From: Planctomycetota bacterium
Lineage (GTDB): Bacteria > JAJVIF01 > JAPKYR01
Direction: 5' to 3'
DNA length: 64,000 nt
Assembly: GCA_030614715.1 (NCBI GenBank)
Contig: JAUWTM010000001.1
Coordinates: forward strand, 29,661 to 93,660
The notes beneath the pieces are model-generated. The model saw only the letters and a program-made list of their open reading frames with translations, was not told where the DNA came from and ran no database searches. The translations under genes were made by a program, and so were the position numbers. Below, in pieces: positions 1 through 63,134 of the stretch. Positions within the stretch are counted from its first letter, which is position 1. Every line of letters starts with the position of its first letter.

Positions 1-2245
1 CTGTACCCTGGTCCAGGACTGTTTTTACAATGATCCCACCGAAGGTGGAAATATCCATGTTGATAGAGTTGACCGGGTTTAACAGGATAGTCTTGGGTAT
101 GACTGAATTCGGGTTTGAAACATCATAACAGCTCATGTTGCTTGACGTTATTGCTATGAGCCCGGGATCCCCTTCCGGATCAATCAGCCCCATTTTCATG
201 ACGTTGTGCTGGACACTGAAAGTATTCACCAGGGTCGGATTAAACGGATCCACCGAGTAATCGTAAATGTCTACATATGAGTTTGAACCGGTGTCATGGG
301 CGACATAAATATAGCTGTCGCTGACCGCAATCGCTTCGACAGAATCAGAAATCGAGATGATGTCTTCGTGATGGACCGGATTGGACCAGTCAGTGTAATC
401 GATAACGTCTATTCCGGCGGGCCCGGAGAAATTTTCCCAGTAATACAGGTATTGGTTATAAAGCACCGGTCGGGCGAACCCATCATCCTGAATAATGCTG
501 AGCAGGTTTGGCACCGGTACCCCCGATTCATAAGCATATGCGCCGTTAATGCCTGTCGTAACAATCCAGGGAGAGTTCACACCCACCCAGTCGGCTTCGC
601 AAGCCATGCTCTCTGGTGTAACATCCACGGGGCTGACGGGAGTAATATCTTCCACAGTAATATTAGTTTCGAGATAATATTTCAATGCTCCCGGACCGGC
701 CGGTGTGAACATGGTGGCTTCGACCTGCAGGTAATACTCCCCAGGATGAAGTTTATTAATTTCGAGATCTATTACTTCTATACCCGGGCTCACATTGTAA
801 CCCTGGACAACCAGTGACCCATCCGGCTCGGTCAGCGAAAGTTCGTGAGTGTCAGCGTCAATATTAAGTTTTATCGATCCCGTGGCTGTTGAGGAAGAGG
901 GTATCTCAAATCTGTACCAGTCCTCCTGGTCGGAGGTATAACACAGGTAATCAGCGACACTATCAATCAGATCTATGTCGACTGCCGACGCAAGGTCGTT
1001 ATTCAGATCGGTTTCGCACGGTGGGTCCTCGATGGTTATTTCCGATACCTGCCACGACGTGATTACATCCGTCGGGGACGGAGTCCCGAAACCCTGGTCA
1101 TATGAATTTCCGCCGGTAGTCTCAACCCGCGTGTAAATCAGGCGGGATTCAGTGCCTGTTATTACCGGTATTCCCGTAAGGTACGTATTGTATCTGAAGT
1201 ACGTCCCGATCTCACCGAAATCAAAACCTGTGACAGGCCCGTTGAACAACGACGGGGAGTACAGCTGCACCATGTTGATCTCAGCACCTACATTATTATT
1301 GAGCTGGCCCTGCCAGTCGTAGATATCCGTGTTCATGACCAGCGTCCCACCGTACAAACCCGATTCAGAATCGTAAAACAGTGTGTTTACAGCCGGTTCA
1401 GTTTCAACATAGTAAGGCTCCGGCTGGTTTGCATTAATCGGAAAATCATCGGGAAGTTCGGCTGGCGGGTTCACAGTTGGAGTTGCCCATGACGCGTCGA
1501 TCGCGTAGCCGTATGTAATTTGCGGACCCGGATTCATGGGAAACTTGATCGTGTACCGCCTGGTGTTACTGCTGGTATTTGTGAATATTCCCCGCCCGCC
1601 GTCAGCATCCATAGCGGTTGTCAGTACTGGATTCATAGACGACGTCGCGTCGAGCACATCCGCAAAATACTTGAAGGGATTTATCAGCGCGGTTAATTCA
1701 TTCGCGGACGTTGAAGCCAGTGTCCCCTGCGTGTAACCGAAAAATCCCGATTCAGTAAATTCGGTTGGATTCCACCACCTCGTGTAACCATCGGCATTTA
1801 ACAACCTTGGTTCATCGAGTCCGGCGAAACCAAAACCGCCGATGCTTAATGTCCCCGGTGTTATCAGAATTCCTTTAACATCGAACCCGCTTAACTGCGG
1901 TTTTGTTCCGAACGGATGAGTCAGGGTGACATCGAACGTAAAAATCCCGTTTGGAGGATCATGCTCAGACGGCACACCCACGGCGGAGACTCCCATTGTT
2001 GCATTGAGAGTTCCGGTAACATTCAGGTGCAGATTGGCGTCTCTCAAGGGAGTTACATCAATTCCCTTTGTCCCGGGATTTACATTGATGATGTAGTACC
2101 CGAGACAGGCATGTCCCGCGCCTGACTGGTCCACAACCCTTGATTCATCAGGATAAATGTCCGGTGTACCGGGTGCAGTCACCACTGAACTGCAGCCGTA
2201 CAGAAACATGATCGATACGGAAATCAGTACGAAGAATTTTTTCAT
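1..2245 (-). CDS. Secreted lipoprotein, N-terminal 748 codons (runs off the left edge); tandem paralog of the 2345..5824 gene (family N-module + PPC-like + LVIVD-like repeats)
   Basis: Absent from the ORF track because it has no in-window stop. I checked the minus-strand frame from ATG 2245..2243 codon by codon down to position 1 and found no stop. Translation starts MKKFFVLISVSIMFLYGCSS (signal peptide + Cys). It continues LHLNVTGTLNATMGVSAVGVPSEHDPPNGIFTFDVTLTHPFGTKPQL, NADGYTRWWNP, NTRRYTIKF, YGYAIDASW and YDWQG, in the same motif order as the 1159-aa neighbour. Confidence 0.8.
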   Translation of the reverse strand, partial: MKKFFVLISVSIMFLYGCSSVVTAPGTPDIYPDESRVVDQSGAGHACLGYYIINVNPGTKGIDVTPLRDANLHLNVTGTLNATMGVSAVGVPSEHDPPNGIFTFDVTLTHPFGTKPQLSGFDVKGILITPGTLSIGGFGFAGLDEPRLLNADGYTRWWNPTEFTESGFFGYTQGTLASTSANELTALINPFKYFADVLDATSSMNPVLTTAMDADGGRGIFTNTSSNTRRYTIKFPMNPGPQITYGYAIDASWATPTVNPPAELPDDFPINANQPEPYYVETEPAVNTLFYDSESGLYGGTLVMNTDIYDWQGQLNNNVGAEINMVQLYSPSLFNGPVTGFDFGEIGTYFRYNTYLTGIPVITGTESRLIYTRVETTGGNSYDQGFGTPSPTDVITSWQVSEITIEDPPCETDLNNDLASAVDIDLIDSVADYLCYTSDQEDWYRFEIPSSSTATGSIKLNIDADTHELSLTEPDGSLVVQGYNVSPGIEVIDLEINKLHPGEYYLQVEATMFTPAGPGALKYYLETNITVEDITPVSPVDVTPESMACEADWVGVNSPWIVTTGINGAYAYESGVPVPNLLSIIQDDGFARPVLYNQYLYYWENFSGPAGIDVIDYTDWSNPVHHEDIISISDSVEAIAVSDSYIYVAHDTGSNSYVDIYDYSVDPFNPTLVNTFSVQHNVMKMGLIDPEGDPGLIAITSSNMSCYDVSNPNSVIPKTILLNPVNSINMDISTFGGIIVKTVLDQGT

Positions 2246-2344
2246 CACTTTCGATTCACCTGCTTAGTTTGTCCCCCGACACTGGAATTTAAAGTAAATT
2301 TGTATTCGAGTAAGTTTTATCTCACGACAAAGGCAGCCTGTGCC

Positions 2345-5300
2345 TTAATAAAGCTTGAAAACTCTCAGACCAATGGAATCGTATAACTCGTACATGTACC
2401 TTCCATCCATGATCACGTCCCTGAGCCGCCATACCGGGTCACCCTCGACTGGCTGGCCGGAAACTTCGGGTGCTGAGGGATCGGTGATATCTATGAACCA
2501 TGGATGGTCGTTGTCACCGCCGCAGACCGCGTACTGCTCCCATAGAGTAAGGAAATAGATTCCTGTAACAGGGAGGGGTGTCGACGATATCAGTTGCGGG
2601 TCAACCAGGGGGTCGGATATATCGTAAATCTTGAGCTGGAAGAGATCTATTATATAAAGATAACCGTCCCGTATTTCAAAATCCCTGAAATACAAGCTCA
2701 TCGGGAATACTTTAATCAATTGCGGCTCGTCCGGATTCAGAAGGCTGTACTTGAATAGCGATCCAACATGTCCACCATACATCATGGGTCCATAAACCAG
2801 GTTCTTCACAGCGACATCGGCAACAGGTGCTTCGGTAATAAATGTAGGAAAATCACTCGGGAATCCGGAAATGTCATATGACCTTACAGTCGGACCTGTT
2901 CCCAGAAACACGTACATACGTGTATCGGACAGGCCGATTCCGGTTATATATTCACCGAGGGTTGCTGTCCACGCATAGGACCAGTTGCCGTTCTGGGGAT
3001 TCCCCACGTATAAACGGTCATCATTACGCGCCCAGGCGTATATTTTGTCGGTGTACGTTAACCTCTCATTACCCGCGGGAGACCCGTATTGGGATATTAC
3101 GGACACGTTTTCAGGATCGGAAATATCGATAACATTTCGCTGTGAACAGGAACCGTGGTTTCCCATCAGCAGCATGCGGTCGTCATACGCGAATCCCTGG
3201 TCCGGATAATTTACTACCTGTGGATTTTCCCACCCGAAACTCGGAACCGTGTCGGGAGCGAGTTCCGCGTACCGCGGTTTGTAATACCTCTGGATGAAAT
3301 ACAGGTCCCATATGTAATTGTCCATGAACGTAACGCGGGACCTGGTCATAAATGTGTCCAGCAGGACGACATTTGTCGGATCGCTTACGTCGTAGCAGTT
3401 CATATACATGTTGGAGTTTTGATACCCGCAGATCAGAACGATACTGGAGTACGCCACAATGGAGGTCGCGGTATTCGGGTAGTTCAGGACACCCTCAAAT
3501 TTGAAAGTGTCGTCAGGATTGAAGGTATAAATGGGCATTGTATATGCGTTGGTTACCGTGTTCCGTCTGATAATGTATGTTTCCGGTCCGAGTACCGACA
3601 TGCCCTCGATCTCAATGCCGGGGACATAATTAAGCCCGTCAAGTTGAGTAATGCTGGCATGGTCGTATGTTGAGTAGGAATACAAGCCGTCCCTGTAACC
3701 AATAATTACTCTCTCGTTGATCATTCCCTTGAACAGGATATCCATCGCGATAATCTCAGAGGGCTGAATATAAGTCCCGCCAACAAATTCCGGAAGATAC
3801 GGATTTGACTGGTAATCCAGCAGGTTCAGAATCTGCTGACCGTTATTCAATGTCGTAAGAAAAATGTGATCGTAGGTCATCTCGATCGCAGTATATTCCG
3901 TGTCGACCGTCCAGATGCTGTCGGTTACATACGGTGCCGCGGGATCGGTGAAATCGATGAATTTCAATGTCGACTGGACACCGTCGTAATCAACCAGGTA
4001 CATGTAATCGTTAAACATGGCTGGAGTACCGGTATTTGAAATTTCAATCCGCTTGACAAACGCCGGGTCTGTTTTATCTGTTACGTCATACACCCAGACA
4101 AAATACTCATTCGCCATGTAGAGATAATCGGGGCTTGCATAAAGCCAGGTCGGATCCAGCGACAGGTCCTCCGGGGTAACTTCCACGGCAGTGGTAATGA
4201 CAATCTCTTTAATCTGAAAATCGGGAACGATTGCGTAAAGCCCGGGGGTATTCTGGACCGATGTTTCAACGCTGAAGTAATAAGTACCGGAGGTCACAAT
4301 GTTATCGGTGAACAGGGGAGAATAAAGTCCGTTCGGGTAGCCGAAGGTAATTACTGTGCCGTTTTTATCAAGGACCGTAACAAGCGTACCGGGGATATCG
4401 CTGTAGAAGCGGATTTCACCTTCAAGATATGATCCATAGGGAATATCAAGGCGGAAGAAATCCGCATCGTCCGTTCCCCCACAGAGCTGCCCGGTCTCCG
4501 GAGTGTCAATTTCGAGAATAACCGCTTCACTCATTGAATTGTTGTCATCGGAGGAACAATCCGGATCGATGACCTCGACATCGATCCTGTGCCACGATTC
4601 GAGTGAAACATCCGGTGCATCAGCGGCGGTTTGTTTGTATGTGCTGCCATCGCTTGATACAACGCGGCAATAGACCGGAACCGTTCCGGCGTCTTCAGGC
4701 GAGGTTTGAGCAAACACTCCCTCGAACTTCGCCATGAATTCATCTTCCCATAGAAAGTCGGCGCTAACCGGGTCCGGGCTGATATCTGGACAATAGAACT
4801 CCACGCTGGATGTTTCATCGAGGAAATTACCGCTCTCTTTCCCCTGCCAGTCGTAATAATTCATCCTCATTATGAGGTTTCCACCTGAGGACCCGCTTCC
4901 ACTGTCGTGATAGAGCGTATTGACGCGTGGGGCAAGCTTGATCCAGTACGGCTCAGGCTGATTCGCAGCAATTGGGAAATCATCGGGAATCTCAACTGGT
5001 GGATTTACATCGGGTGGGGTCCACGAACAGTCAATCGCGTAGCCGTAAATTATCTGGGGACCGCCCTGCATCTCGAACTGAATGGTGTAACGGCGTGTGT
5101 TTTCGGATCCTGCCCTGAAAACGGCCCTCGCATTGTCAGTATCAAGCGGTTCGAAGGTCAGATCCGATACTGAATCGGTCGGACCTAGAAAATCAGCAAA
5201 AAGCTTATACGGGTTAACAGTGGCTGTGAGGTTTATTTTCGGTCCAACCGCAAAATTTCCCTGGGAGTAACCGAATAATCCGGGTTGTGTGAACTCAATC

Positions 5301-5824
5301 GGATTCCACCATCGCGTGTAACCATCAGCGTTCAATATTGTAGTTTCACCTGATGCCGGGAGGACAACATCCCCTGCTGCGAGACCTCCGGGAACCATTA
5401 AAATTCCCTTCACATCGAATCCTGAAAGTTGTGGTTTGTCCGGAAATGGATGGGTGAGTGTGATGTCGAATGTGAAAATCCCATTCTGGGGATCGTGCTC
5501 GGACGGCACTCCCTGTGCTGAAACACCCATCGTCGAATTTAAAATCGATGTTGCATTAAGATGCAGCATCCCTGACCTGACGGGTGAAATTTCGATATCC
5601 TGATTCTCGGTATCTATAACAATATAGAAAAGGCCAAGGTTGTTATGGGCAGAACCCTCACCACCATTGGTGACAGCCTCCTGATCTAACCCCGGACTGG
5701 ATGGGAGAGTCGAATGATCGGAACAGCCTGAGAGTGTGATGAAAACAAATGTGCAAAGAAAAAATAGCTTGAACCGAATGAATTTCAAGACAGGTCTCCT
5801 CTTGGTGTTTTCCCCCTTCGACAA
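2345..5824 (-). CDS. Secreted lipoprotein: family N-module + PPC-like (pre-peptidase C-terminal type) domain + LVIVD-type beta-propeller repeats
   Basis: 1159-aa ORF with lipobox ITLSGC. N-module motifs: THPFPDKPQLSGFDVKGI, NADGYTRWWNP, NPYKLFAD, TRRYTIQF, YGYAIDCSW, YDWQG. PPC-like stretch: GGTDDADFFRLDIP...VTVLDKNG. At least 7 repeats of the pattern hydrophobic-x-(Y/I)D(I/V)(S/T)DPxxP, for example VYDVTDKTDPAF, IDFTDPAAPY, YDVSDPTNV, IDISDPENV, YDISDPLVDP, IDITDPSAPE. The listed start is TTG. A TTG at 5788 preceded by AGGAG gives MKFIRFKLFFLC... and may be the real start. Confidence 0.85.
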   Translation of the reverse strand: MSKGENTKRRPVLKFIRFKLFFLCTFVFITLSGCSDHSTLPSSPGLDQEAVTNGGEGSAHNNLGLFYIVIDTENQDIEISPVRSGMLHLNATSILNSTMGVSAQGVPSEHDPQNGIFTFDITLTHPFPDKPQLSGFDVKGILMVPGGLAAGDVVLPASGETTILNADGYTRWWNPIEFTQPGLFGYSQGNFAVGPKINLTATVNPYKLFADFLGPTDSVSDLTFEPLDTDNARAVFRAGSENTRRYTIQFEMQGGPQIIYGYAIDCSWTPPDVNPPVEIPDDFPIAANQPEPYWIKLAPRVNTLYHDSGSGSSGGNLIMRMNYYDWQGKESGNFLDETSSVEFYCPDISPDPVSADFLWEDEFMAKFEGVFAQTSPEDAGTVPVYCRVVSSDGSTYKQTAADAPDVSLESWHRIDVEVIDPDCSSDDNNSMSEAVILEIDTPETGQLCGGTDDADFFRLDIPYGSYLEGEIRFYSDIPGTLVTVLDKNGTVITFGYPNGLYSPLFTDNIVTSGTYYFSVETSVQNTPGLYAIVPDFQIKEIVITTAVEVTPEDLSLDPTWLYASPDYLYMANEYFVWVYDVTDKTDPAFVKRIEISNTGTPAMFNDYMYLVDYDGVQSTLKFIDFTDPAAPYVTDSIWTVDTEYTAIEMTYDHIFLTTLNNGQQILNLLDYQSNPYLPEFVGGTYIQPSEIIAMDILFKGMINERVIIGYRDGLYSYSTYDHASITQLDGLNYVPGIEIEGMSVLGPETYIIRRNTVTNAYTMPIYTFNPDDTFKFEGVLNYPNTATSIVAYSSIVLICGYQNSNMYMNCYDVSDPTNVVLLDTFMTRSRVTFMDNYIWDLYFIQRYYKPRYAELAPDTVPSFGWENPQVVNYPDQGFAYDDRMLLMGNHGSCSQRNVIDISDPENVSVISQYGSPAGNERLTYTDKIYAWARNDDRLYVGNPQNGNWSYAWTATLGEYITGIGLSDTRMYVFLGTGPTVRSYDISGFPSDFPTFITEAPVADVAVKNLVYGPMMYGGHVGSLFKYSLLNPDEPQLIKVFPMSLYFRDFEIRDGYLYIIDLFQLKIYDISDPLVDPQLISSTPLPVTGIYFLTLWEQYAVCGGDNDHPWFIDITDPSAPEVSGQPVEGDPVWRLRDVIMDGRYMYELYDSIGLRVFKLY

Positions 5825-6008: not shown

Positions 6009-7436
6009 TCACAGCCTCATGACCAAAACCCGTTCCTCGGTCATCTCGTGCATCGTGCACTTGATCCCCTCCCGACCCTGTCCGGAGTCCTTTGTGCCAC
6101 CGTACGGGTAATTATCAACTCGGATGGTCGGGATATCGTTCGCGATGATGCCCCCGACCTCAAGTTCCTCGTACGCGTTCATAATTCGCCCGACATCCTT
6201 CGTGAAAACACCTGCCTGGAGGCCGTAGCGTGAGTCATTCACCTTGTTCATGGCTTCATCCCATGTTTTATATGTCTCAATGACCATTACCGGGCCGAAA
6301 ATCTCCTCCGCGACCACTTTTGAATCCGGTGGTGCGTCGGTCAGGACGGTTGGGGTCAGGACATTGCCCTTGCTCCGCCCCTTCAACAGATATTTTGCAC
6401 CTGCATCGACCGCTTCCTTCACCCACGACTGAACACGGTCGACCTCGTCCGATCGGATCATCGGTCCGATGATGATTTTCTCATCTGATGGGTCGCCGGA
6501 CTTTAGCTTTTTGATCTCCTTCAACAGTATGGGCAGGAATGTGTCGTGAATCGGCTCGTGGATGAAGACTCGCTGAACCGAAATACAGATCTGTCCAGCG
6601 TGCGCGTATCCACCGAACGCGATTCTGTTTGCCGCGAACTTAAGATCGGCGTCCTCATGCACGACAACTGCGGCATTACCACCAAGTTCGAGCGCTACGC
6701 GTTTCCGTCCCGCGATTACATTTAGTTTCAGCCCGACCGTGTCACTTCCGGTGAAAGAGAGCATCTTCGGACGGTTATCGAAAACGAGATGCTCGAATGC
6801 TGCGCCCCTGCACGGAACAACCTGGACTGTACCCGGAGGTAGACCCGCGTCATGGCAGACCTCGGCAAGCATCAGGGCTGTGAGGGGCGTGTCGCTGGCC
6901 GGTTTGATGATGGTCGGGCATCCGACCGCTATCGCAGGCGCCAGCTTGTGCATGATGAGATTGAGGGGAAAATTAAACGGGCTGATCGCTAGTGTCGGGC
7001 CGAGCGGGACCCGTCCGACCAGCCCGGTGTAATCCTTTCCGCCGGGATGTATGTCCAGCGCAAGCCACTCGCCACCGAATCGGGTCGCTTCCTCGGCTGC
7101 TAATTTACTCGTAAGCTGGGCTCGATTGACCTCCCCGCGCGCAAGTGCGATGGGTTTTCCGCCCTCGCGACGTATCATCTGTGAGAATTCCTCCCCGCGC
7201 TTCGCGATACCCTTCGAGATCGCGTGAAGCATTTCCGCGCGTTCGTAGCGTTTCAGTGATGCAAACGGCTTGAATGCACGATCGGCAGACACCATTGCTT
7301 TATCGAGCAGTTTTACGTCTGCTATCGGGCTGTGAGCGATGATCTCATTGTTGTAAGGGTCGTGTACGGGAAAGTGTTTACTCGTCGCGACAAATTTACC
7401 GTCGATGTAGCACTTTTCTTTCTTAATTCGAGCCAT
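6009..7436 (-). CDS. NAD(P)+-dependent aldehyde dehydrogenase family protein
   Basis: 475 aa with the ALDH hallmarks FTGSDTVG, ELGGNAAVVV and catalytic-Cys motif GQICISVQRV. Substrate cannot be assigned from sequence. Confidence 0.9.
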   Translation of the reverse strand: MARIKKEKCYIDGKFVATSKHFPVHDPYNNEIIAHSPIADVKLLDKAMVSADRAFKPFASLKRYERAEMLHAISKGIAKRGEEFSQMIRREGGKPIALARGEVNRAQLTSKLAAEEATRFGGEWLALDIHPGGKDYTGLVGRVPLGPTLAISPFNFPLNLIMHKLAPAIAVGCPTIIKPASDTPLTALMLAEVCHDAGLPPGTVQVVPCRGAAFEHLVFDNRPKMLSFTGSDTVGLKLNVIAGRKRVALELGGNAAVVVHEDADLKFAANRIAFGGYAHAGQICISVQRVFIHEPIHDTFLPILLKEIKKLKSGDPSDEKIIIGPMIRSDEVDRVQSWVKEAVDAGAKYLLKGRSKGNVLTPTVLTDAPPDSKVVAEEIFGPVMVIETYKTWDEAMNKVNDSRYGLQAGVFTKDVGRIMNAYEELEVGGIIANDIPTIRVDNYPYGGTKDSGQGREGIKCTMHEMTEERVLVMRL

Positions 7437-7468
7437 TATGTTTGTCCTTGCAGAGGAGTATCAGGATC

Positions 7469-7497
7469 ACAATATTTGATGAATGAGAATGTGTCAA
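7469..7497 (-). promoter_or_regulatory. Sigma70-like promoter for the 6009..7436 aldehyde dehydrogenase
   Basis: The minus strand reads TTGACA (7497..7492), a 17-nt spacer, then TATTGT (7474..7469). This sits ~35 nt upstream of the ATG at 7436, which is preceded by AAGGA. Confidence 0.45.
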
Positions 7498-7547
7498 TCG
7501 AAAAGGGGACTGAATCGAAAAGGGGACTGAATCGAAATGGGGACTGT
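7497..7547. repeat. Three tandem 17-bp iterons (ATCGAAAAGGGGACTGA x2, ATCGAAATGGGGACTGT), plus an inverted partial copy at 7610..7620
   Basis: Direct reading of the sequence. Units occupy 7497-7513, 7514-7530 and 7531-7547. TGTCCCCTTTT at 7610-7620 is the reverse complement of the iteron core. The array abuts the -35 box of the putative promoter. Confidence 0.85.
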
Positions 7548-7664
7548 CACCTTTTTGCGTTAACCAATCTTCCCAGTGCGCCCACTTTTTCTTAAGCAAA
7601 AAGGATGCCTGTCCCCTTTTCCAAAATAACTGGGACACCTCAGGCATCAGCCGCCAAGTGTCCC

Positions 7665-7886
7665 ATTATTGCATTCACGGAGGGGTAACGTCCGCGTCAC
7701 CCGGCGTGAGCACGTCCCGTCCTCACTTTATTCATCACCCGATAAATTTTATCGCCAGTTTAAGTAGTTTTTCATTATTGATTGCATGCACGGAGGGGTA
7801 ACGTCCACGTCACCCGGCATGAGCACGTCCCGTCCTCACTTTAATCATTACCTGAAAAATTTTACCGCAAGCTTAAGGAGATTTTC
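7665..7886. repeat. Tandem ~110-bp duplication covering the last 39 nt of the 7848..9080 CDS plus its downstream GC-rich region
   Basis: Copy I (7665..7773) and copy II (7774..7886) align end to end at roughly 85% identity, both running ATTATTG..CACGGAGGGGTAACGTCC(G/A)CGTCACCCGGC(G/A)TGAGCACGTCCCGTCCTCACTTTA.... Copy I retains a decayed gene end that translates as EKLLKLAIKFIG*, versus ENLLKLAVKFFR* in the real gene. Confidence 0.85.
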
Positions 7887-9080
7887 TTTCGCCTTTGTGT
7901 ACGGATACCACCATGTGCGGGGTTTCGACGGGGATGCGCTCTGTATCGACGTCCAGCGGACATTGCACGCTTCATGGAGCGAGTATTCCGAAAAAATAGT
8001 GCCGGATCCAGCCGTGCCGCGACCACCCCATGGAAGGCATGGGAGCCCGACGCTGATATCGTTGATCCATGACATCGTTACGGGTATCGATCTCGCCAGA
8101 TTCTGGGCTCTACTCAGGTCCTTTGACCAGATTGAAATGCCGAGAGGATCGGTTCCGTCCAGGTCGGATATTGATGACTCCGCGTTATCCACGGTTATGA
8201 CCATTGTCAGTGGATCGGTTGTGCTTTCGGGTATGTCTGAACTGGGAAGGTCTTTCAGGTAATTTTTAAGAGCCTCGATGAACTCGTCTGCAATGCCGGA
8301 CTCGACGACTATCCTGTTGGCCGCGATGCACGCTTCACCGTGCGCGTAGCATGCGCTCCAGGCTATTCCCCGCACAGCGTCGTCGACATTCGCATCGTTA
8401 AGGACAATGACAGTCGTACCGCCGCCAAGTTCAAGGACGTAAGGTTTCCCGACGGCGTGACATTGTTTCGCGACTTGATCACCATTAGTGCTGCTTCCGA
8501 AGAAGAATATTTTGCGGACTGTTTCCTCGTTTATCAGCCACTGCGACGCCTCAGGTCCTCCGTAAAGCGTGTCAGCGAACTCACCACGAATGCCCGTTTC
8601 CGCCAGCAGCTCAGTTATCAATGGGGCAACCAGGCTGGATTTTTCTGATGGCTTGATTACCACTGTGTTACCGGCGAGAAGGAGCCATGTAAGGCTCATC
8701 ATGCCGAGTGAGAACGGGAAATTGGCTGGCGTGATGACCGCGACGAGACCTATTGGGTCCCATTCAATGATGTTTTTTTTGTTGAAGAAGCCGGGGCGGG
8801 GATAGCGGAGATTTACAGGCGCGAGCCACTTCGGGAACATCTTTTCACAGTAACTCGACATTTCGAGGGCAGGGAGGACCTCCTGCGCGAGTGCTTCCGC
8901 GTATGGACGAGAGGTCTCCTCAACGATCACTTTGGCTATGTGATCGGCACGTCGGGCGATGGTTTTACGGAGCTTCCGGGCAATCTTAACCCGCTCACGG
9001 ACATTCCGATCTGCCCGGATTTTAAAATTGTCAGAGAGACTGCGTGTAATGTCGCAAGCTGTCGCGGGATCGAATCGCAT
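7848..9080 (-). CDS. Aldehyde dehydrogenase family protein (short form, 410 aa)
   Basis: Motifs FFGSSTNG, LELGGGTTVIV and catalytic-Cys region HGEACIAANRIVV. It lies in tandem with the first ALDH. Confidence 0.8.
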   Translation of the reverse strand: MRFDPATACDITRSLSDNFKIRADRNVRERVKIARKLRKTIARRADHIAKVIVEETSRPYAEALAQEVLPALEMSSYCEKMFPKWLAPVNLRYPRPGFFNKKNIIEWDPIGLVAVITPANFPFSLGMMSLTWLLLAGNTVVIKPSEKSSLVAPLITELLAETGIRGEFADTLYGGPEASQWLINEETVRKIFFFGSSTNGDQVAKQCHAVGKPYVLELGGGTTVIVLNDANVDDAVRGIAWSACYAHGEACIAANRIVVESGIADEFIEALKNYLKDLPSSDIPESTTDPLTMVITVDNAESSISDLDGTDPLGISIWSKDLSRAQNLARSIPVTMSWINDISVGLPCLPWGGRGTAGSGTIFSEYSLHEACNVRWTSIQSASPSKPRTWWYPYTKAKENLLKLAVKFFR

Positions 9081-47463: not shown

Positions 47464-49737
47464 TTACCAATGGCCCCAGGCTACCCGAAGGTCATTAAGA
47501 CCGTCAGGACCAAGGTAAACGATTAACGGACGGTCCATCGAATCGAGTGCCAGAGCGATTTTTGCCCTGTCGAAGGAAGGTGCAACAAACTGGTCGTGCC
47601 AGCCGCCTTCATCCCTGTAGATATATGAAACACCATCATCATGGTTGTCCTTGTACGCGATGTGGGGTTGTCCATGTGAGTCAGTCCTGATATCCAGCTC
47701 GTCCAGAAAATTTATTGAACCGATCGCGGCACCAGGCACGATTGTTGATGTCATCCAGTTTAATTCACTACCATGCGAGAACTTGAGTCCGGGATCGTCG
47801 TAATATGTAACATACATTTCACCGGAAAGCCCGGCAGAGATTCTTGGGCATGTAACAGGCGATGCATAGATCACATGCATTTGCCAGGTTCCAGTTGTGT
47901 TGTACCAAACAGTCAGATTATTGACCGCCCATGGCTCTGTTGACACGATGTAAGGATTGCCAAAGGAGTCGAACGCAAAATCCATGCAGTTGTCGCCAAC
48001 AAGAGGTCCTACAGCTTCCTTTTCCCAGTCACCGGGCTGACCATACGCGAACCACAACGTATCGTCGTCAATGTTGAACGAAACCCCGTAATTTGTTCCG
48101 TCGTGATCGATTACGTTGAAATACCCGCCGCAGTAGGATGTATCTATCTCAGAGTAGTTCCAGTCCAGTGAGATGTGGTCGCGTATATTTATGACGCTGT
48201 CGCGATTCGCACCGTTCCAGTGGATGTTCGGCCAAACAGCAGCGAGGTTCCAGTCGGGATCGAAGCACATGCGGATCGAGCAGTGCGCACCCGTGTCTCC
48301 GTAACCGAACGGTGTGTCGTGATCCCAATCGATTCCGTTCCATGCATAAAAATGATACATGGCCCCGCCGTCCGCAGATGATACTGCCACAATCGGATTA
48401 TCGTCCTGGTCGAAAATACCGTTTGTCATCCAGATATCGTGCGGGTGGCCAAGGTTGATATGATCCCATGCGTAATTCACCTTTATTGGTACGTCGTATA
48501 TGTAATACGCTGCGAGATGTCCCTCGGGATAATCGATACCGCTTATTCCGGGAATCTGGGGTTCGTACGTTGCTGGATGAACCGAATTAACCGTGACCAG
48601 CAGCAGTTGATTGTTGAGGCCTGATGGGGTTACGTCTGGAATGTTAATATCGTACCTGCGCCTGGTTACGTTAACCGGGACCATATATCCATTTGCTGGA
48701 TCCAGGTAAATCGGACCCTGAAAAAGGGTCGGTGATTCAATTTTTATGGACTCGATCTCTTCGGTAGCTGCGATACTCATACCGTATAATTGCCAGTCAT
48801 AGATATCCAGCTTCAGATCCAGATCACCACCGTAATGCGATTGATCAAAGAACCACGCACTGCAACCAGTATCGATTACATCAAGCTTATATGCTTCCGG
48901 CATGTTTGCACTTATGGGAAAATGTTGAGGTAAATTGGGATTTTCAATGTCTTCGTAAGGTTGAGCCCATGACGCGCTTACTGCGTACTTGAAGTTAAAT
49001 ACGGGCGAACTATCTTCGACTTGGAATTGCAGTTCGTACCTTCGCTTGTTATTTGCGTTATTGTACGATGAAAAAAATCCGCGGTTGTTGATATTTACGA
49101 AAAAATCATCCTCGGCTGATAAACCATCGCAGAAGTACTTGAATGCATTAAGAGTATGCGTGCTCGTGAAATTCGGATTGGCTCTCGCACCCTCGATGTA
49201 TCCGAGCAGAGTTCCGTACGTTGTGAACTCGACCTGGTTCCACCATCTGGTCCATCCATCGGGATTTTGAAGGAGTGTGTTCGGTTGAATACTTGAGATT
49301 ATCGATGGATCTGTCGCCCACGGAACGCCATCGTGATCGTCCATTACGATACCCATCACGTCGAACCCGCAGAATATCGATCCAGGGAACGGGTGGTTGA
49401 GCGTAACATCGACATTGACCAGTCCAGATGGAAAGTCGGACGTGCCTGCATCGATGTTAATCGTCAGCATATGGATCGGTGATTGAGGTGGCTGGAGATG
49501 GTTGACAACATTCGCCTGAAAGTTGAGCGCCCTGAGCGGCACGATTTCCAGCGTTTCGTTCTCCGGATCGATGTAGACGTCCCACAATCCCCAGATCGTG
49601 CGATGATTTCCGACCTGATTAATTGAGTGAATATCCGGGGTACTGATATCAGGTGATACAGGGATTTGGGATTTACTGCATGAGCCAAAGGATACTGCAA
49701 CGATGGTCAGCAGGATGATCAGCTTGACACGGTGCAT
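47464..49737 (-). CDS. Secreted lipoprotein: family N-module + a distinct Trp/Asp-rich repeat (propeller-like) C-terminal domain
   Basis: Lipobox SFGSCS, with RBS GGGAGGG. N-module motifs IWGLWD, NHPFPGSIFCGFDVMGI, NPDGWTRWWN, FKYFCD, KRRYELQF, KYAVSASW, IYDWQ. Confidence 0.85.
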   Translation of the reverse strand: MHRVKLIILLTIVAVSFGSCSKSQIPVSPDISTPDIHSINQVGNHRTIWGLWDVYIDPENETLEIVPLRALNFQANVVNHLQPPQSPIHMLTINIDAGTSDFPSGLVNVDVTLNHPFPGSIFCGFDVMGIVMDDHDGVPWATDPSIISSIQPNTLLQNPDGWTRWWNQVEFTTYGTLLGYIEGARANPNFTSTHTLNAFKYFCDGLSAEDDFFVNINNRGFFSSYNNANNKRRYELQFQVEDSSPVFNFKYAVSASWAQPYEDIENPNLPQHFPISANMPEAYKLDVIDTGCSAWFFDQSHYGGDLDLKLDIYDWQLYGMSIAATEEIESIKIESPTLFQGPIYLDPANGYMVPVNVTRRRYDINIPDVTPSGLNNQLLLVTVNSVHPATYEPQIPGISGIDYPEGHLAAYYIYDVPIKVNYAWDHINLGHPHDIWMTNGIFDQDDNPIVAVSSADGGAMYHFYAWNGIDWDHDTPFGYGDTGAHCSIRMCFDPDWNLAAVWPNIHWNGANRDSVINIRDHISLDWNYSEIDTSYCGGYFNVIDHDGTNYGVSFNIDDDTLWFAYGQPGDWEKEAVGPLVGDNCMDFAFDSFGNPYIVSTEPWAVNNLTVWYNTTGTWQMHVIYASPVTCPRISAGLSGEMYVTYYDDPGLKFSHGSELNWMTSTIVPGAAIGSINFLDELDIRTDSHGQPHIAYKDNHDDGVSYIYRDEGGWHDQFVAPSFDRAKIALALDSMDRPLIVYLGPDGLNDLRVAWGHW

Positions 49738-49887
49738 AGTAAACCCTCCCTACTAATGCTAAACTTAATTATACCTGAATCAAGGTATGGTAATCAAGAC
49801 CCATTCATATAAAATGTAATGATTTTTGGGTATGGGTCCCTGATACGATATACTTGTAGTCGATCTGATCAAGCCGGAGGCCAACTT

Positions 49888-52478: not shown

Positions 52479-52526
52479 ATTGCATAGTGTTAATGGGGCG
52501 AACAGGAATACCCAGAGAGGTGAATA

Positions 52527-55920: not shown

Positions 55921-58875
55921 ATGAATCGGTGTTTACTTTGTTTACTGGCAGGACTGTGTGCAGGACTTATTCTTATCGGGTGTTCCGGGGGTGCCGATCC
56001 TGTCATCCCTGCTGAAAATCCGGATCCTGAACTGACACGCGATACTGTCTCGTCCGTATCCCATACACATCTCTGGGGTCTCTACGATGTTTATGTAGAT
56101 ATTGAGGAAATGGAAGTCACAGCTCTGCCGAGCCGAAGCGTGATGTTCACCTCAAATGTCGTGAATTTCATCAACAATAATCCCTCAAACCTGTCTTTTC
56201 ACATAAATGACGTGGAAACCACTCCGGACTGGATCGGCATCTATACCAGCATCACAGTCGGCCACCCCTTCCCCGGATTCCCCCAATACAACGGGTACGA
56301 TGTTCGCGGGATCTTCATGGGTAACGGTTCCGCTTCGATGGCCTACAACCCCGATCTCGTCTACCCTGTCAAGGGAACCGACCAGATGGTCCTTCCCAAT
56401 CATTGGAACGGCCTCGGCTATCCGGACGGTTACACGCGCTGGTTCAACTATTCGGAATTTTCAGAGGGTGGGATGCCACTGTTCCAGTACACTCAGGGTC
56501 ACTTCGCGACATCCGGGTTCTCAGGCTCCGCAACCCTCAATCCGTACGTGTATTTCGCGGACGGCCTTGATAAGTACGATTATCTGTTCGAGTGGCTCGA
56601 CTCTCACCCCGGCCAGCACGGCCAGTTCGCATCCGGCTCGTTGAACTCACGATATTACTACCTTCGATTCCCCCACACCGATGGTATCTATTACGGCTAC
56701 GCGATCATCGCCGACTGGGGGGGCATTGAACCGGAATTTCACCCGTCGAACGCACCTGAAGCAGTCGCGTGCAGGGTCGACGATAACAGCAATGTCTATT
56801 ACGTGAGCCCGACGGACAATGGCGGGAATCTGGTCCTCGATATCAGCGTCTGGGACTGGGATTCATCCGTGGAAAGCGTAGTCATGGAGGACTACCGGGT
56901 ATTTATCGAATCGACCGTCCTGAGTGGAGTGTATGAATTCGATTCTTCCGACATGACCCCGGTCGATGGCAGCGAAAATTACTCAACCTACCACGTGGAG
57001 ATACCGGCGGATGACGTCACCGGTGTCGATGACAACGAATACTGGGTGATTGTCGAACAGCAGGGACTCGATTACACGAACGATTTCGGGACTCCCAATC
57101 TCGCCGGTACGGATACCCTTGCAGCCTTCTTCCGCTACGATCTCGATGTTTCAGATAATCCCGGGAATACACCCCCGGTAATCATCGATATCACTGACGA
57201 TATCGAGCCCGACGGCCTGAATACTGCACTGACCGACGAGGACATCGCTGTCACTTACATCGTTGACTTCACCGATCCTGACACGGGTCAGACACACACG
57301 ATCGACTGGTACATCGAGAACTCTGGAACCGGTGCTCCGACCGATCCACCGGACGCAATGCCCTATGACTGGTCGCTCAAGGAAATTGGTGATTATGAGA
57401 TCTGGGTAAAGGTCGATGACGGCTACGGTGCTGTGCTCGGAGGTCCGTGGGTGGTCAGCAAGGCAGTCTACGGATGGGTCCGTACGTGGGGAGCAGGTAA
57501 CCAGGACCGTGGTTACGGCGTTGTTGTGGACAGCCAGGGCTATATCTATGTAGCGGGGAATTTCTACAGCACTGTGGACTTCGACCCCGGTCCGGGAACT
57601 GAGGAATATAACTCCGGTGGCAACAGGGACTCTTTCGTCAGCAAGTTCGACTCCGCAGGAAACTTCTACTGGGCACGAACGTGGGGAGGCAGCGAATCGT
57701 TTGGTGGCGGTGCGAGCGATATCACTGTCGACAGCAGCGACAACGTGATAATTTCCGGATATTTCTTCGGCACGGACGTCGATTTCGATCCCGACCCGGC
57801 TGGTGATGACCTTCATACTTCGGTTGGGTCGCAGGACGCTTATGTGACGGTCTTTGATCCCGATGGAGATCACCTGTGGGCAAATACCTGGGGCGGGACC
57901 CACGAATACGGTGATAACTGCATGGGTGTCGACGTCGATTCGTTCGACAACATATACGTTGCTGGCCAGTTCCTCGATACGGTGGACTTTGACCCCGATC
58001 CTGTCGATACCGATCCTCACACAGCGGTCGGATATTACGATTTTTACGTGTCCAGTTTCGACTCGACCGGAGATTTCCGGTGGGCAAACACATTCGGCGG
58101 TGACCTGTACGATTTCGCGTTCGGTTGCGAGGTCGACAGCCTTAACAATGTCTGTGTCGCGGGACGGTTCAACAACCTTCTCGATTTCGACCCGGGTCCG
58201 GGCGATGAAACTCACGATGAGGACGCCGAGGGCAACATGTACCTTGCGAAGTACGATTCGGACGGCGATTTCGTCTGGGTAAAGGTCTTTGGCAGAGGGG
58301 ACGCCTTCAGGATTGCGTTCGACAGCAATGACAACGTCTTCCTCTCAGGTGTCTGGGGCGGGGCATCTCAGTTCGATCCCGATAACCTGACTGAACTGCG
58401 GATCGCGAATGGTGCCCGTGACTGCTACCTGAGCAAATTCAGCTCAACGGGACTGTTCCAGTGGGTCCAGACGTGGGACTCGATCGCGATTACCGACATC
58501 ACATCTGGCTATATTGGCCATCATGTCACAATCGACAGCTCCGACAACATTTACACCACCGGACATTTCACCGGTACCGCGGACCTCGATCCGGATCCGG
58601 TGGATACAGACGATCACGTGTCGAACGGGCTTCGTGATACGTTTCTGAGCAGGTTTGATTCATCCGGAGACCTGGCATGGGCAAGGTCGTGGGGTGGAGA
58701 GTCCACAGACGACGGTGCGGGAATCGCGGTCGATAACGACAGCGGGAACATTTACGGTACCGGCTGGTTCTTCGGCACTGTCGATTTCAACCCCGGCCCG
58801 GACATCGAGGAGCGCACAGCATTAGGCTCACTCGACGCCTTCCTGATCCAGTTGAAACCGGATGGGTACTGGTGA
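55921..58875 (+). CDS. Secreted lipoprotein: family N-module + middle domain + SBBP-type beta-propeller repeats
   Basis: Lipobox LIGCSG. Motifs HLWGLYD, GHPFPGFPQYNGYDVRGI, YPDGYTRWFN, NPYVYFAD, SRYYYLRF, YGYAIIADW, VWDWDS. The C-terminal part has about 8 repeats of DFDP(G/D)P....D.(F/Y)(V/L)SKF...G...W..TWGG. Confidence 0.85.
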   Translation: MNRCLLCLLAGLCAGLILIGCSGGADPVIPAENPDPELTRDTVSSVSHTHLWGLYDVYVDIEEMEVTALPSRSVMFTSNVVNFINNNPSNLSFHINDVETTPDWIGIYTSITVGHPFPGFPQYNGYDVRGIFMGNGSASMAYNPDLVYPVKGTDQMVLPNHWNGLGYPDGYTRWFNYSEFSEGGMPLFQYTQGHFATSGFSGSATLNPYVYFADGLDKYDYLFEWLDSHPGQHGQFASGSLNSRYYYLRFPHTDGIYYGYAIIADWGGIEPEFHPSNAPEAVACRVDDNSNVYYVSPTDNGGNLVLDISVWDWDSSVESVVMEDYRVFIESTVLSGVYEFDSSDMTPVDGSENYSTYHVEIPADDVTGVDDNEYWVIVEQQGLDYTNDFGTPNLAGTDTLAAFFRYDLDVSDNPGNTPPVIIDITDDIEPDGLNTALTDEDIAVTYIVDFTDPDTGQTHTIDWYIENSGTGAPTDPPDAMPYDWSLKEIGDYEIWVKVDDGYGAVLGGPWVVSKAVYGWVRTWGAGNQDRGYGVVVDSQGYIYVAGNFYSTVDFDPGPGTEEYNSGGNRDSFVSKFDSAGNFYWARTWGGSESFGGGASDITVDSSDNVIISGYFFGTDVDFDPDPAGDDLHTSVGSQDAYVTVFDPDGDHLWANTWGGTHEYGDNCMGVDVDSFDNIYVAGQFLDTVDFDPDPVDTDPHTAVGYYDFYVSSFDSTGDFRWANTFGGDLYDFAFGCEVDSLNNVCVAGRFNNLLDFDPGPGDETHDEDAEGNMYLAKYDSDGDFVWVKVFGRGDAFRIAFDSNDNVFLSGVWGGASQFDPDNLTELRIANGARDCYLSKFSSTGLFQWVQTWDSIAITDITSGYIGHHVTIDSSDNIYTTGHFTGTADLDPDPVDTDDHVSNGLRDTFLSRFDSSGDLAWARSWGGESTDDGAGIAVDNDSGNIYGTGWFFGTVDFNPGPDIEERTALGSLDAFLIQLKPDGYW

Positions 58876-58889
58876 TTTTCGTCACGCTG

Positions 58890-59875: not shown

Positions 59876-59881
59876 CCCTTT

Positions 59882-60520
59882 TTATTCTTGAATTTCTATC
59901 TCACAGATTGCTAAAACTGCGAACGGAGAATGCTCTTCCACAAGTTCATCAGCTACACTCCTGAATTTCAAAGCATCCGCGTAGTTATTAAATAAATGAT
60001 ATTTATTAAGTTCGCCGCTTTCCTCTATAATTGTCCAGTCAATACCACAATTCGTTATCGCAGAAATCCATAAATTTGCATCTATTACATCAAATCCACG
60101 TAACTCGCCATACTCCTCTATGATGTAATTAAATGCATAGAGATATTTATAAAATGAGTATGCAGTTTCTACTCCATCATCAATGCTGCGAGTTCTTTTA
60201 AATTTTAAGATCCTCTCTAATTCAAGTGCCAATCCAAATATCGATGTTACTGGGAATTCCTTATCTAGACCTCCGTATACAACCTTCTTAATTCCCTCTA
60301 ATGAAGTGATCATTTCAAAAGGATGATCTCTTGGTTTGAGTTTTTCATCAGGAGCTATTCTTTCTAAAAATTCAGAATCAGGAGGATGAAGGAAATCCGC
60401 GGTAATAATATAGCAATCAGGTTTATGTTGACCTTGCAGATAGAACTCGTACCCTCGTACTGAGTAGCCGATAAAGATAAATTCATCAAGTACAGAAAAA
60501 ATTTTGCTATCCTTGCGCAT
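59882..60520 (-). CDS. Candidate immunity protein (AT-rich cytoplasmic protein downstream of the toxin-like gene)
   Basis: 212 aa with no signal peptide. Sampled 60-nt blocks are ~37% GC, versus 50-60% in flanking genes. It lies 27 nt downstream of the 419-aa ORF on the same strand. The function is inferred from context only. Confidence 0.5.
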   Translation of the reverse strand: MRKDSKIFSVLDEFIFIGYSVRGYEFYLQGQHKPDCYIITADFLHPPDSEFLERIAPDEKLKPRDHPFEMITSLEGIKKVVYGGLDKEFPVTSIFGLALELERILKFKRTRSIDDGVETAYSFYKYLYAFNYIIEEYGELRGFDVIDANLWISAITNCGIDWTIIEESGELNKYHLFNNYADALKFRSVADELVEEHSPFAVLAICEIEIQE

Positions 60521-60547
60521 TACTCCACTCCATGTGTATTTTAAGTC

Positions 60548-61807
60548 TTAATATCTCCATAATCCTTGATCTTGCAGATAACGAACGACTTCCATCATTT
60601 CATCCCACGTTACTGCCCAACCTTCATCCACCCACTTTCCTTTATACCATTCTTTACGATGTATATGAGGATTATCAATAAATTCCTGTAAGATTTTGTT
60701 AAAGTGCATGCTCCGTTCAGGATTTCTTACTAAATCTATAAATCTACCACCGGATAACGGCACTCTATTTTTTCCCCACAATCTTCGACACACCTTGGCT
60801 AGCCTTTGTAGAGTAACTACTGCAGGTGAAAAATTTGCAAATCCCCGCTCATTTTTCAACATTTTACTGCCACGTGCAAGCCATATACCGATTTTCCCGG
60901 ATTTTGCCAGGATACCGGCCAACTTGAATACCTTTGTCGCACCACCAAACACTAGCTCGCCAGCAAGGATGTGAACCGTGTCCCTCCAAAAATCTCTGAG
61001 GATATTAGCGGCTTCTAATTCCCACATGGCCGCTTCAGCACGGTATCCCGCTATCGTCTCCCTTGCAGCATCGAAATCAAATGGTTTCCCACTGGATTGG
61101 ATTGGATTCATAACACCATCACGAGCCCGGTATCCACCCCGATGAGCTTGGTGATTATAACTGGGATCGTCACCGCGCCAGTTTCCGCCGCCGCGCTGGT
61201 AGGAGTAGTACTCATCCCACGTCATGTTTTCCGTAGTAATGGGCTGTAGTCTTTCATCCCTGGCTCGTGCTGCTGCCTCCTCGTTGATGCCGGTCATTAC
61301 CATGCACCCGGCGTAAATGATGTCCTGTCCTGTTTTATGCCGCCAATGTTCTTCAATCCTGGCTTGAATATTGGCTTCGAGATCCGCAAGCGGGTCCGTT
61401 TCAGGAGGTGCGGTGCCCTCTATCGGACTCGGTACGGGGTTCGGCATAATGGGCGGTCCGCCAGCGATCGGATTACTCGGCATTCCCCCGCCCAGCCTGG
61501 GATCGAAATCTATCCACGGACGCGGCATTCCCGGATTTGTCGTGGGTTTTTCGGGCTTGTATCCGGGCATCGTGCCCCACGGAACGATTCCGTCTGGTCC
61601 GAACAGGCCTCCGCCGGGAACCCCGGGTTGGATTTCATTAGGAATATCGCAGATAGCGGTCATCTGACCGATCCCCACGAACGCACCGACCGAGTTCCCG
61701 AGTCCCGTCGACGGATCGTCATACCCCACACTCATCATCGAGGCTCCGTGATGATCATCACCCGGTGCCCCAAAGAAATCCTCGGGGGTCGGCTCGGGAT
61801 TCGGCAT
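60548..61807 (-). CDS. Candidate polymorphic-toxin-like protein: conserved Gly/Pro-rich N-region + AT-rich variable C-terminal domain
   Basis: 419 aa with no signal peptide. The N-terminal 66 aa are duplicated in the orphan ORF. Pro/Gly linkers are present (GGPPIMPNPVPSPIEGTAPPETDP). GC drops from ~60% (61000-61800) to ~33-47% (60548-60900). The RBS is weak, and homology to the orphan extends upstream of the ATG to a TAG stop. Confidence 0.55.
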   Translation of the reverse strand: MPNPEPTPEDFFGAPGDDHHGASMMSVGYDDPSTGLGNSVGAFVGIGQMTAICDIPNEIQPGVPGGGLFGPDGIVPWGTMPGYKPEKPTTNPGMPRPWIDFDPRLGGGMPSNPIAGGPPIMPNPVPSPIEGTAPPETDPLADLEANIQARIEEHWRHKTGQDIIYAGCMVMTGINEEAAARARDERLQPITTENMTWDEYYSYQRGGGNWRGDDPSYNHQAHRGGYRARDGVMNPIQSSGKPFDFDAARETIAGYRAEAAMWELEAANILRDFWRDTVHILAGELVFGGATKVFKLAGILAKSGKIGIWLARGSKMLKNERGFANFSPAVVTLQRLAKVCRRLWGKNRVPLSGGRFIDLVRNPERSMHFNKILQEFIDNPHIHRKEWYKGKWVDEGWAVTWDEMMEVVRYLQDQGLWRY

Positions 61808-61829: not shown

Positions 61830-61853
61830 TACCAGGCCATTAATCACCTAATA

Positions 61854-63134
61854 TTAATCCCACGGTTCGTCCGACTTATCCAGTTCGAAACAGAACCATG
61901 CTGCAAGGTCCTCACCGACCATTTCGTTGGGAACACCGAACGGATTCGAGTAATCGTAGCCGGGATACCTGGGTATTACCCAGAAATCGTACGCATTATC
62001 TATCTGCAGAATCGCTGTGGGGATCTCGTGATGGAATATCGCGTAATTATCCCCGACTTCCATCGGCACCATATTAAATTCCTGCAGAAATGTACCGCCG
62101 GTCCCGTGATTGGAGACAATGACGAGATGCAGGATGTAATCATCCATGATCCCTGTGTCCAGGTCGACATCCGACAGGGGATCGATCACCTTGAACTCGA
62201 AAACGAAGTAATCCGGATGCTCGGTGGCGTATATTTTCTCGCACGCGATCGCCTCGCGCTGGTTCGACGGGTGAACGTCCGCGGCTTCCCAGTTCGCTGT
62301 CACCGAGTACGCAAATTCAACCGCTGTTTTTGAAAATCGCACGTAGTAATTGCGCGTGTTGGTCGCACCGGATGAAAACACACGGTCGGTGGTCGGGTTT
62401 GCATCGAGCCATTCAATAATTCCGTCGTGCACTCCGAGCCCGTCGGCAAACAACTTGTACGGATTGAGCACTGAAGCCCAGTAGTAGAATTCTGCGTACT
62501 TGTCAGATGCGAAAATCCCCTGCGTGTAACCGAACAGCCCTTCAGTAGTGAAGAACTTCGGATTGTACCACCGCGTGTAACCGTCAGGACCACCGCCGTC
62601 AAGGTTTACCGGATCGTCCATCATTTCCTGGCTGCCGGGATAACCCGGCTGACCATCGTAAAACGTTGATGGCTGGTAGTGCGGATACCCGTTGAATCCC
62701 ATGTTGACGCCGAAATCCGGGAAGCACGTCGCTCCCTCGTTGCCAATGAAAATTCCCCGGACATCGTAGACATTCAGGTGTGGTGCCCCGTAGATCGGGT
62801 GCGTTATGCTGACATCGAAATCGACATCCACGTAATCAACATCGGGGGTGAAATTGTTTACATGGATCGCAAGCGCAGATGGGTTGTTGTTCAGCATCTG
62901 AACAAGATTCATCGTGAACATTGCATGACGGTTTGGGGTAACCGAAATTGTCCCGGCTTGCGGATCGAGTACACACTCGTAGTATCCCCAGAGACGTGTC
63001 GAGTTTCGATGCAACAGCGACTGGTTACGTACAGCAGGATCAGGGGAAACAGGATTCTCTGCTCCCGAAGAGCAGGACATTGTAAACGCCGTGCAAATTA
63101 GACATAGAATTGCGATGAGATTGATGCGCGTCAT
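61854..63134 (-). CDS. Secreted lipoprotein consisting of the family N-module only
   Basis: The ATG at 63134 follows GGAGG and gives MTRINLIAILCLICTAFTMSCSSG. Motifs RLWGYYE, THPIYGAPHLNVYDVRGI, GPDGYTRWYN, NPYKLFADGLG, TRNYYVRF, FAYSVTANW. The ORF stops (..FELDKSDEPWD*) at the boundary where paralogs continue into their C-terminal domains. The track start at 63218 adds 28 non-signal residues. Confidence 0.8.
   Translation of the reverse strand: MTRINLIAILCLICTAFTMSCSSGAENPVSPDPAVRNQSLLHRNSTRLWGYYECVLDPQAGTISVTPNRHAMFTMNLVQMLNNNPSALAIHVNNFTPDVDYVDVDFDVSITHPIYGAPHLNVYDVRGIFIGNEGATCFPDFGVNMGFNGYPHYQPSTFYDGQPGYPGSQEMMDDPVNLDGGGPDGYTRWYNPKFFTTEGLFGYTQGIFASDKYAEFYYWASVLNPYKLFADGLGVHDGIIEWLDANPTTDRVFSSGATNTRNYYVRFSKTAVEFAYSVTANWEAADVHPSNQREAIACEKIYATEHPDYFVFEFKVIDPLSDVDLDTGIMDDYILHLVIVSNHGTGGTFLQEFNMVPMEVGDNYAIFHHEIPTAILQIDNAYDFWVIPRYPGYDYSNPFGVPNEMVGEDLAAWFCFELDKSDEPWD

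Follow-up and report, generated by a model that had tools for sequence, protein, structure and literature searches.

An N-terminal module of no assigned family shared by seven predicted lipoproteins of a Planctomycetota bacterium

Why would a bacterium keep many predicted lipoproteins that begin alike and end differently, and what might their common N-terminal part do? The question is raised by a 64,000-nucleotide stretch of a Planctomycetota bacterium (contig JAUWTM010000001.1, positions 29,661 to 93,660; this whole stretch is hereafter the window, numbered from its first letter), in which seven genes, g1 to g7, encode proteins that share such a module. We report that the module is unassigned, as had been proposed from the sequence, with no match in Pfam, NCBIfam, the PDB sequences or, for a model with a predicted local distance difference test score (pLDDT) of 87, in Foldseek searches. 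The reading that we favour, at a probability of roughly 0.4, is that the proteins are lineage-specific modular lipoproteins of the envelope, in which the conserved N-terminal domain of the module (N-domain) would bind a common ligand or partner in a metal-dependent manner and the C-termini would confer specificity. Expanded modular lipoprotein families are already known; what is new is a core domain without family or structural assignment.

The seven genes and their common module

The seven open reading frames (ORFs) listed in the first-pass annotation of the window were all located by ORF calling and translation, with correct coordinates and frames. Together they comprise 16,816 nt, and their share of 26% of the 64-kb window held on recomputation. 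The genes, with the subdivision of g6, the paralogue chosen for modelling, are as follows.

1..2245, minus strand: g1, 3' end beyond the window edge; module at about 986-2245, then a PPC-like domain and the first part of an LVIVD-like propeller
2345..5824, minus strand: g2, 1159 aa, TTG start; module at about 4505-5824, C-terminus of about 650 aa
43789..46452, plus strand: g3, 887 aa; module at 43789-44808, then a Kre9/KNH-like immunoglobulin-like (Ig-like) domain and an SBBP propeller
47464..49737, minus strand: g4, 757 aa; module at 48463-49737, W/D-rich C-terminal domain of about 335 aa
49888..51804, plus strand: g5, 638 aa; module at 49888-51147, C-terminal domain of about 220 aa
55921..58875, plus strand: g6, 984 aa
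55921-55983, plus strand: g6 signal peptide with lipobox Cys21
55984-56070, plus strand: g6 tether
56071-56760, plus strand: g6 conserved N-domain
56761-57159, plus strand: g6 Ig-like domain
57160-58872, plus strand: g6 linker domain and SBBP propeller
61854..63134, minus strand: g7, 426 aa; stand-alone module without a C-terminal domain

The start of g7 is placed at 63218 by the database gene call, yet its orthologues favour 63134. On the same strand, g1 starts 99 bp past the end of g2, and the divergent genes g4 and g5 have a 150-bp intergenic region in common (49738-49887). The family genes are interspersed with housekeeping genes, i.e. those for FolD, a pterin-binding enzyme (dihydropteroate synthase-type, PF00809), CarA and TldD/PmbA, and an Rfam search of the window gave no match.

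A lipoprotein signal had been claimed for all seven proteins and is present in each translation, where a signal peptide of the Sec/SPase II type, with a positively charged N-terminus and a hydrophobic segment, leads up to the lipobox Cys (LYGC, LSGC, IFSC, FGSC, LMSC, LIGC and TMSC in g1 to g7, respectively). Among relatives from other genomes a strict lipobox regular expression is satisfied by 146 of 172, and most others have boxes of the FGC or IGC type. The seven window proteins are acidic, with an isoelectric point of about 4.1.

All-against-all BLASTP gave pairwise alignments of 190-680 residues with E-values between 2e-9 and 4e-135; given this length and these E-values the similarity is neither due to chance nor restricted to signal peptides. 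The paralogues fall into the groups g1/g2, g4/g5 and g3/g6/g7, with identities of 27-46% between window paralogues, and a hidden Markov model (HMM) built from the seven modules picks up exactly these seven ORFs in the window. The common region had been put at about 350 aa. It exists, but its extent is larger, to precursor residue 415-425 or thereabouts, and it consists of some 370 folded residues, an Ig-like domain included, together with a tether and the signal peptide.

The ordered set of eight motifs that had been described for the module is visible in the alignment, with some exceptions. LGYY/LGLF replaces the LWG motif in g1 and g2, and the DW motif is missing in g7, which also has an insertion of about 30 aa specific to its subgroup. 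In g3 about 85 aa are deleted in frame (alignment columns ~245-325, near nt 44,350), and with them go three of the eight motifs, NPYKxFAD, NTRxY and YAxxAxW, and three core strands; g3 still has an intact ORF and its SBBP propeller despite this deletion. Its nearest relative in another metagenome-assembled genome (MAG), which is about 50% identical, has about 70 extra residues at the deletion site, and most or all of the deletion thus appears to be absent there. The gene g3 may be a decaying or re-purposed paralogue.

The order of parts within the module is lipobox Cys, a tether of 23-40 aa, the N-domain of about 230 aa and an Ig-like domain of about 130 aa, and in the 173 family proteins retrieved the module is present exactly once per protein and is always N-terminal. 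The first conserved strand begins 23-40 residues after the lipobox Cys (median 29; 154 of the 173 proteins, in which both motifs could be located). The tether is of low complexity and predicted to be disordered, and a conserved PxxP is its only conserved feature. Beyond the C-terminal edge of the module the proteins continue for 0-939 residues (median 411), and eight out of 167 have nothing there.

An AlphaFold2 model of the mature g6 module, based on 101 sequences, reached a pLDDT of 86.9 and a predicted template modelling score of 0.84 (residue numbers below refer to mature g6). Residues 1-33 have a pLDDT below 50 and are disordered, corresponding to the tether, residues ~34-255 form a beta-rich domain, and residues ~262-390 a separate eight-strand Ig-like sandwich. 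Within the beta-rich domain, a 70-residue stretch (113-185) has nearly no regular secondary structure and is nonetheless predicted with a pLDDT of 90-98. Conservation, computed on an alignment of 150 sequences, is concentrated in the N-domain, where 48 residues (counting N256 and E259 at the domain edge), 24 of them polar, reach a conservation of at least 90%, vs just seven residues in the Ig-like domain. N58, H94, P95, D106, D148, G149 and F159 are invariant; R51, which follows the first two strands, is nearly so, and the further conserved polar residues of the N-domain include Arg, Glu, Gln and Asn.

None of the searches placed this module in a described family. Pfam and NCBIfam, choice-of-anchor domains included, gave nothing within it for the seven proteins at E ≤ 0.1, and Pfam gave nothing within it for 111 relatives at E ≤ 1e-3. 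Profile searches of the PDB sequences likewise gave nothing in the module; collagenase PKD domains matched only the region downstream, where the PKD region that follows the module resembles the PKD domain of the ColH collagenase. With the g6 model, the best Foldseek match among PDB structures had an E-value of 6.7e-3 and template modelling scores were at most 0.20, the sole matches being short generic Ig-like pieces (MtrC, NPC2, ApaG-like), and BFVD gave no match; the novelty of the fold is accordingly stated relative to solved structures and viral models. A model of g7 (24 sequences) reached a pLDDT of 73, and its Foldseek hits were dismissed as noise. A literature search on SBBP and LVIVD lipoproteins returned nothing relevant.

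A large family with exchanged C-termini

An HMM search of 1.84 billion cluster representatives (clusters at 50% identity) identified 1,254 clusters in metagenomes at E ≤ 1e-30, which is a lower bound, and 2,313 at E ≤ 1e-3, the weakest of which may stem from the PKD columns of the profile. The source names are all 'hypothetical protein' except for one protein, P0012, which is labelled 'plastocyanin' at JGI. On GTDB contigs, taking one genome per species, relatives are encoded on 480 stretches, and the best 79 loci derive from only about ten MAGs, which carry the labels 'uncultured Planctomycetota bacterium', 'Planctomycetota bacterium', 'uncultured bacterium' or 'bacterium'. Two of these MAGs have at least 49 and at least 41 copies, judged by the module ORFs of the loci that were retrieved, and many loci have 2-6 copies. 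A 21-kb locus (L080/L081, 1-16671) of a 159-kb contig (JGI 3300031949) has four members of 523 to 1,438 aa, which surround a small polysaccharide-biosynthesis cluster comprising a flippase, a GT4 and a hexapeptide transferase.

The FolD encoded in the window has about 40 relatives at 53-69% identity, and the next are at 47% or less; this single gene suggests that the window and the MAGs with expanded families share one deep lineage. Individual paralogues can be followed between genomes: P0111 is an orthologue of g6 over its full length, with 59% identity, the orthologues of the stand-alone g7 are at 50-68% identity, among them P0002, P0004 and P0024 at 56-68%, and the orthologue of g3 in another MAG is about 50% identical. 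Since orthologues of g6 and g7 are at 56-59% identity vs 27-46% between paralogues, the paralogues are old and stable. Judged by these comparisons, the family has many members, is old and is restricted to a single lineage. No family member was found in IMG/VR, and a phage-borne origin of the family was rejected on this ground.

The C-termini of the seven proteins differ, and the domains first proposed for them fared unequally. The SBBP propellers of g3 and g6 are borne out by Pfam and NCBIfam: Pfam SBBP scores 38 bits in g6, above its cutoff, and 16.7 bits in g3, below it, and NF047494 (the LipL53 family) gives 95.7 bits for g3 and 111.8 bits for g6, in both cases over the propeller repeats only and short of the 400-bit cutoff. 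The g3 propeller has six (V/A)DFDPG repeats. A PPC domain had been suggested for both g1 and g2; PF04151 matches g1 weakly over its full model length (17 bits, E 0.011, against a 25.9-bit cutoff) and does not match g2. Repeat motifs of the proposed LVIVD propeller are present in both, with at least six copies of xD(I/V)(S/T)DPxxP in g2 and one (DVSNP) in g1 before the window edge, but the corresponding Pfam family, PF08309, matches neither. The same family was found, in precomputed Pfam data, on one member of the 21-kb locus mentioned above. The C-terminus of g2 has no match in Pfam or among PDB sequences. That of g4 is W/D-rich, as had been noted, with a weak BNR_4 match (E 0.0055), but the internal repeats ascribed to it were not detected. 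The unrelated C-terminal domain of g5, first given as about 200 aa, measures about 220 aa and has no Pfam or meaningful PDB match; a search of the PDB sequences with the C-termini of g2, g4 and g5 gave nothing meaningful. The absence of any C-terminal domain from g7 was confirmed.

That the C-termini are interchangeable was seen across the family. Among pairs of proteins with modules at least 50% identical over at least 300 aa, the C-termini lack detectable homology in 1,211 pairs and are homologous in 448. Within the window, the modules of g4 and g5 are 40% identical and their C-termini unrelated, and g7 lacks the SBBP propeller that g6, its closest paralogue, carries. The module of P0006 is nearest that of g3 (48%) and its C-terminus is homologous to that of g5 (33%).

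In the C-termini of 111 members, Pfam recognised only PKD, SBBP, Kre9_KNH (Ig-like), Sde0182_C, PQQ_2, DUF5122, NIDO, NHL, beta-helix and SH3b domains; peptidase, glycosidase and nuclease domains were absent from the matches to these proteins. The C-termini that Pfam assigns are, by this assignment, binding-type domains and not enzymes. In P0005 and P0012 the C-termini have a type-1 copper cupredoxin-like motif, as read from sequence only.

What the N-domain may do

In the reading favoured here, each protein, once lipidated, would sit on a membrane surface of the envelope. The N-domain would perform a function common to all paralogues, most likely the metal-dependent binding of one ligand or partner, e.g. 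an envelope component or a substrate class, the Ig-like domain would serve as a spacer, and the C-terminal domain would determine which target each paralogue recognises. A repertoire for capture or adhesion, rather than a fast-switching antigen family, would then be formed by the 40-50 old and individually conserved paralogues per genome. The 24 conserved polar residues, the conserved stand-alone form and the binding-type C-termini together suggest a module with a biochemical function of its own, and since a lipid anchor alone suffices for anchoring, a purely passive handle is argued against. The N-domain is probably metal- or ligand-binding and possibly catalytic.

Several points weigh against this reading. 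The ligand, the metal and the localisation are putative, as is the single site into which the invariant residues would group. The conserved polar residues would suit a catalytic site, or a site where a protein partner docks, just as well. Pfam leaves most of the C-terminal regions unassigned, and unrecognised enzymes could be among them. Moreover, either g3 is decaying or the function of the N-domain is dispensable in that protein. A further proposal, which we make tentatively and hold to be doubtful, is that the N-domain is an undescribed fold with an invariant Asn/His/Asp/Asp site within a lineage-specific envelope system of 40-50 genes per genome in a deep-branching uncultivated lineage, and would be either a new class of enzyme or the recognition handle of a dedicated pathway for the display of lipoproteins on the cell surface.

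Rather unlikely, in our view, yet the nearest competitor is that the N-domain is a new catalytic domain (a hydrolase, a lyase or a metal-dependent enzyme) with PKD, propeller and Ig C-termini that target it to its substrate. The invariant His, two Asp and Asn lie, with conserved Arg, Glu and Gln, in long loops that are confidently predicted, the stand-alone version is conserved and no other catalytic domain is recognisable in the 111 members. PPC-like and PKD domains, in addition, usually come after peptidase domains, and an invariant His/Asp core followed by such domains is what the family has in common with multi-domain secreted peptidases and carbohydrate-active enzymes. The core of the module is, however, unlike any catalytic family in sequence or fold, and its strict N-terminal place beside a tether is atypical for enzymes with accessory modules. 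Nor are the cupredoxin-type C-termini of P0005 and P0012 substrate-binding modules, and in the 79 loci and the window no substrate-related gene context was found.

Less probable again is the view taken in the first-pass annotation, in which the module is a passive handle for a dedicated export, flipping or docking machinery and the C-terminus is the functional cargo. Anchoring, export or presentation, the roles first suggested for the module, are hypothetical. Its fixed and single N-terminal place would fit a membrane-proximal base, and this invariant position, the conserved PxxP of the tether and the extensive swapping of cargo all agree with a handle, as would conserved polar residues that formed a docking interface. 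Display systems built on dockerin, SLH or the C-terminal domain of type IX secretion (T9SS-CTD) likewise place one conserved module on many unrelated domains, in dozens of copies per genome. In contrast to these, the present module spans about 370 aa at the N-terminus and is lipid-anchored, it has no sequence or fold similarity to them, no receptor is known for it, and its cargo is without recognisable enzymes of the kind typical of display systems. Members without any cargo are, furthermore, conserved.

When the ORFs of the 79 loci and the window were clustered and those within 10 kb of family genes considered, no conserved secretion, sortase-like, protease or other partner gene emerged. All large recurrent ORF clusters were rejected as shadow ORFs over family genes. 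The genuine recurrent neighbours, in at most seven loci each, are IleRS, HtrA, a GGDEF protein, other PKD/SBBP proteins and an SLH-domain protein, of which the first three are syntenic housekeeping genes. SLH-domain proteins, which would favour a handle, are encoded in some related loci (L024, 18595-20481, and three others), and a system for anchoring to an S-layer or cell-wall polymer, a possible partner of the family, is thereby hinted at in the lineage of the related MAGs.

Slam-dependent lipoproteins have a C-terminal 8-stranded barrel and a neighbouring Slam, which consists of TPR repeats and a DUF560 barrel. The present family differs in that its conserved part is N-terminal, and no DUF560 barrel is encoded in the window. 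The 1,314-aa protein at 9700-13644 (plus strand) is nearly all TPR repeats, with a weak C-terminal DnaJ-like match; it exceeds the TPR_Slam cutoff through summed generic TPR matches only and, lacking the DUF560 barrel, was rejected as a Slam.

Pilus-like polymerisation and antigenic variation are both unlikely, and we would give either a very small chance. According to the former, the proteins would be subunits of a polymerising fibre as in type V pili, with precursors that are cut behind a conserved Arg and joined through strand exchange. Like the type V pilins of Bacteroidota (FimA/Mfa), they are lipoprotein precursors with beta-sandwich domains, the nearly invariant R51 follows the first two strands, and in some members a C-terminal domain is added that resembles the adhesin domain at a pilus tip. 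On the other hand, no FimA- or Mfa-type pilin was among the top Foldseek hits in the PDB, where many are present, no fimbrillin match was obtained with Pfam for the seven proteins or the 111 relatives, and neither an usher nor a protease or other assembly gene was found near the family genes. A contingency family diversifying fast to evade phages or predators would account for the high copy number, the 2-7 copies per locus and the variable C-termini, but single paralogues have full-length orthologues in other MAGs and are thus old and stable, the family has no member in IMG/VR, and inspection by eye of the 150 nt in front of each of the seven genes revealed no common motif or element, homopolymer tracts and invertases not having been specifically searched for.

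Two further systems invite comparison with the family. The SBBP lipoproteins of Leptospira (LipL53, NF047494) likewise begin with a lipobox, have many paralogues per genome and end in SBBP propellers; they have no counterpart of the N-terminal module, and g3 and g6 score far below the 400-bit cutoff of that family. Polymorphic toxins, in which the toxin domain at the C-terminus varies and an immunity gene lies next door, were rejected, the C-termini here being propellers, PKD and Ig domains with no recurrent small gene downstream.

The family appears to be among the largest in an uncultivated bacterial lineage. To find the ligand or the reaction of the N-domain would give a function to well over a thousand clusters of 'hypothetical' proteins and would also show how the host organisms organise their cell surface. 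The module lends itself well to the definition of a new domain and to the solving of its structure, with the 426-aa g7 as a convenient expression target.

Other genes of the window

Between 14473 and 27731 on the minus strand lies a phage-like block of structural genes, with the following members.

26313-27731, minus strand: SPP1-type portal
25099-26031, minus strand: head maturation protease
23706-24710, minus strand: major capsid protein
23092-23610, minus strand: DUF2460-like virion protein
down to about 14.4 kb, minus strand: large proteins without assignment

No terminase or integrase was recognised in this block, which could be a prophage remnant or a cluster resembling a gene transfer agent. 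Two genes of the aldehyde dehydrogenase family, about 0.4 kb apart, are present at 6009-9080 (minus strand), the second with a weak LuxC-like acyl-CoA reductase signal, and the gene at 32623-36351 (plus strand) encodes a hybrid sensor kinase of 1,242 aa, in which several PAS domains are combined with a GAF domain, HisKA/HATPase domains and a receiver domain. The 417-aa protein at 31164-32417 (plus strand) has a lipobox of its own (LLTVAC) and no family match, and the 556-aa protein at 41928-43598 (minus strand) has CarboxypepD_reg and PEGA repeats. Directly downstream of g7, on the same strand, are genes for two proteins without a family match (60548-61807 and 59882-60520, minus strand). Some of these last four are probably envelope proteins.

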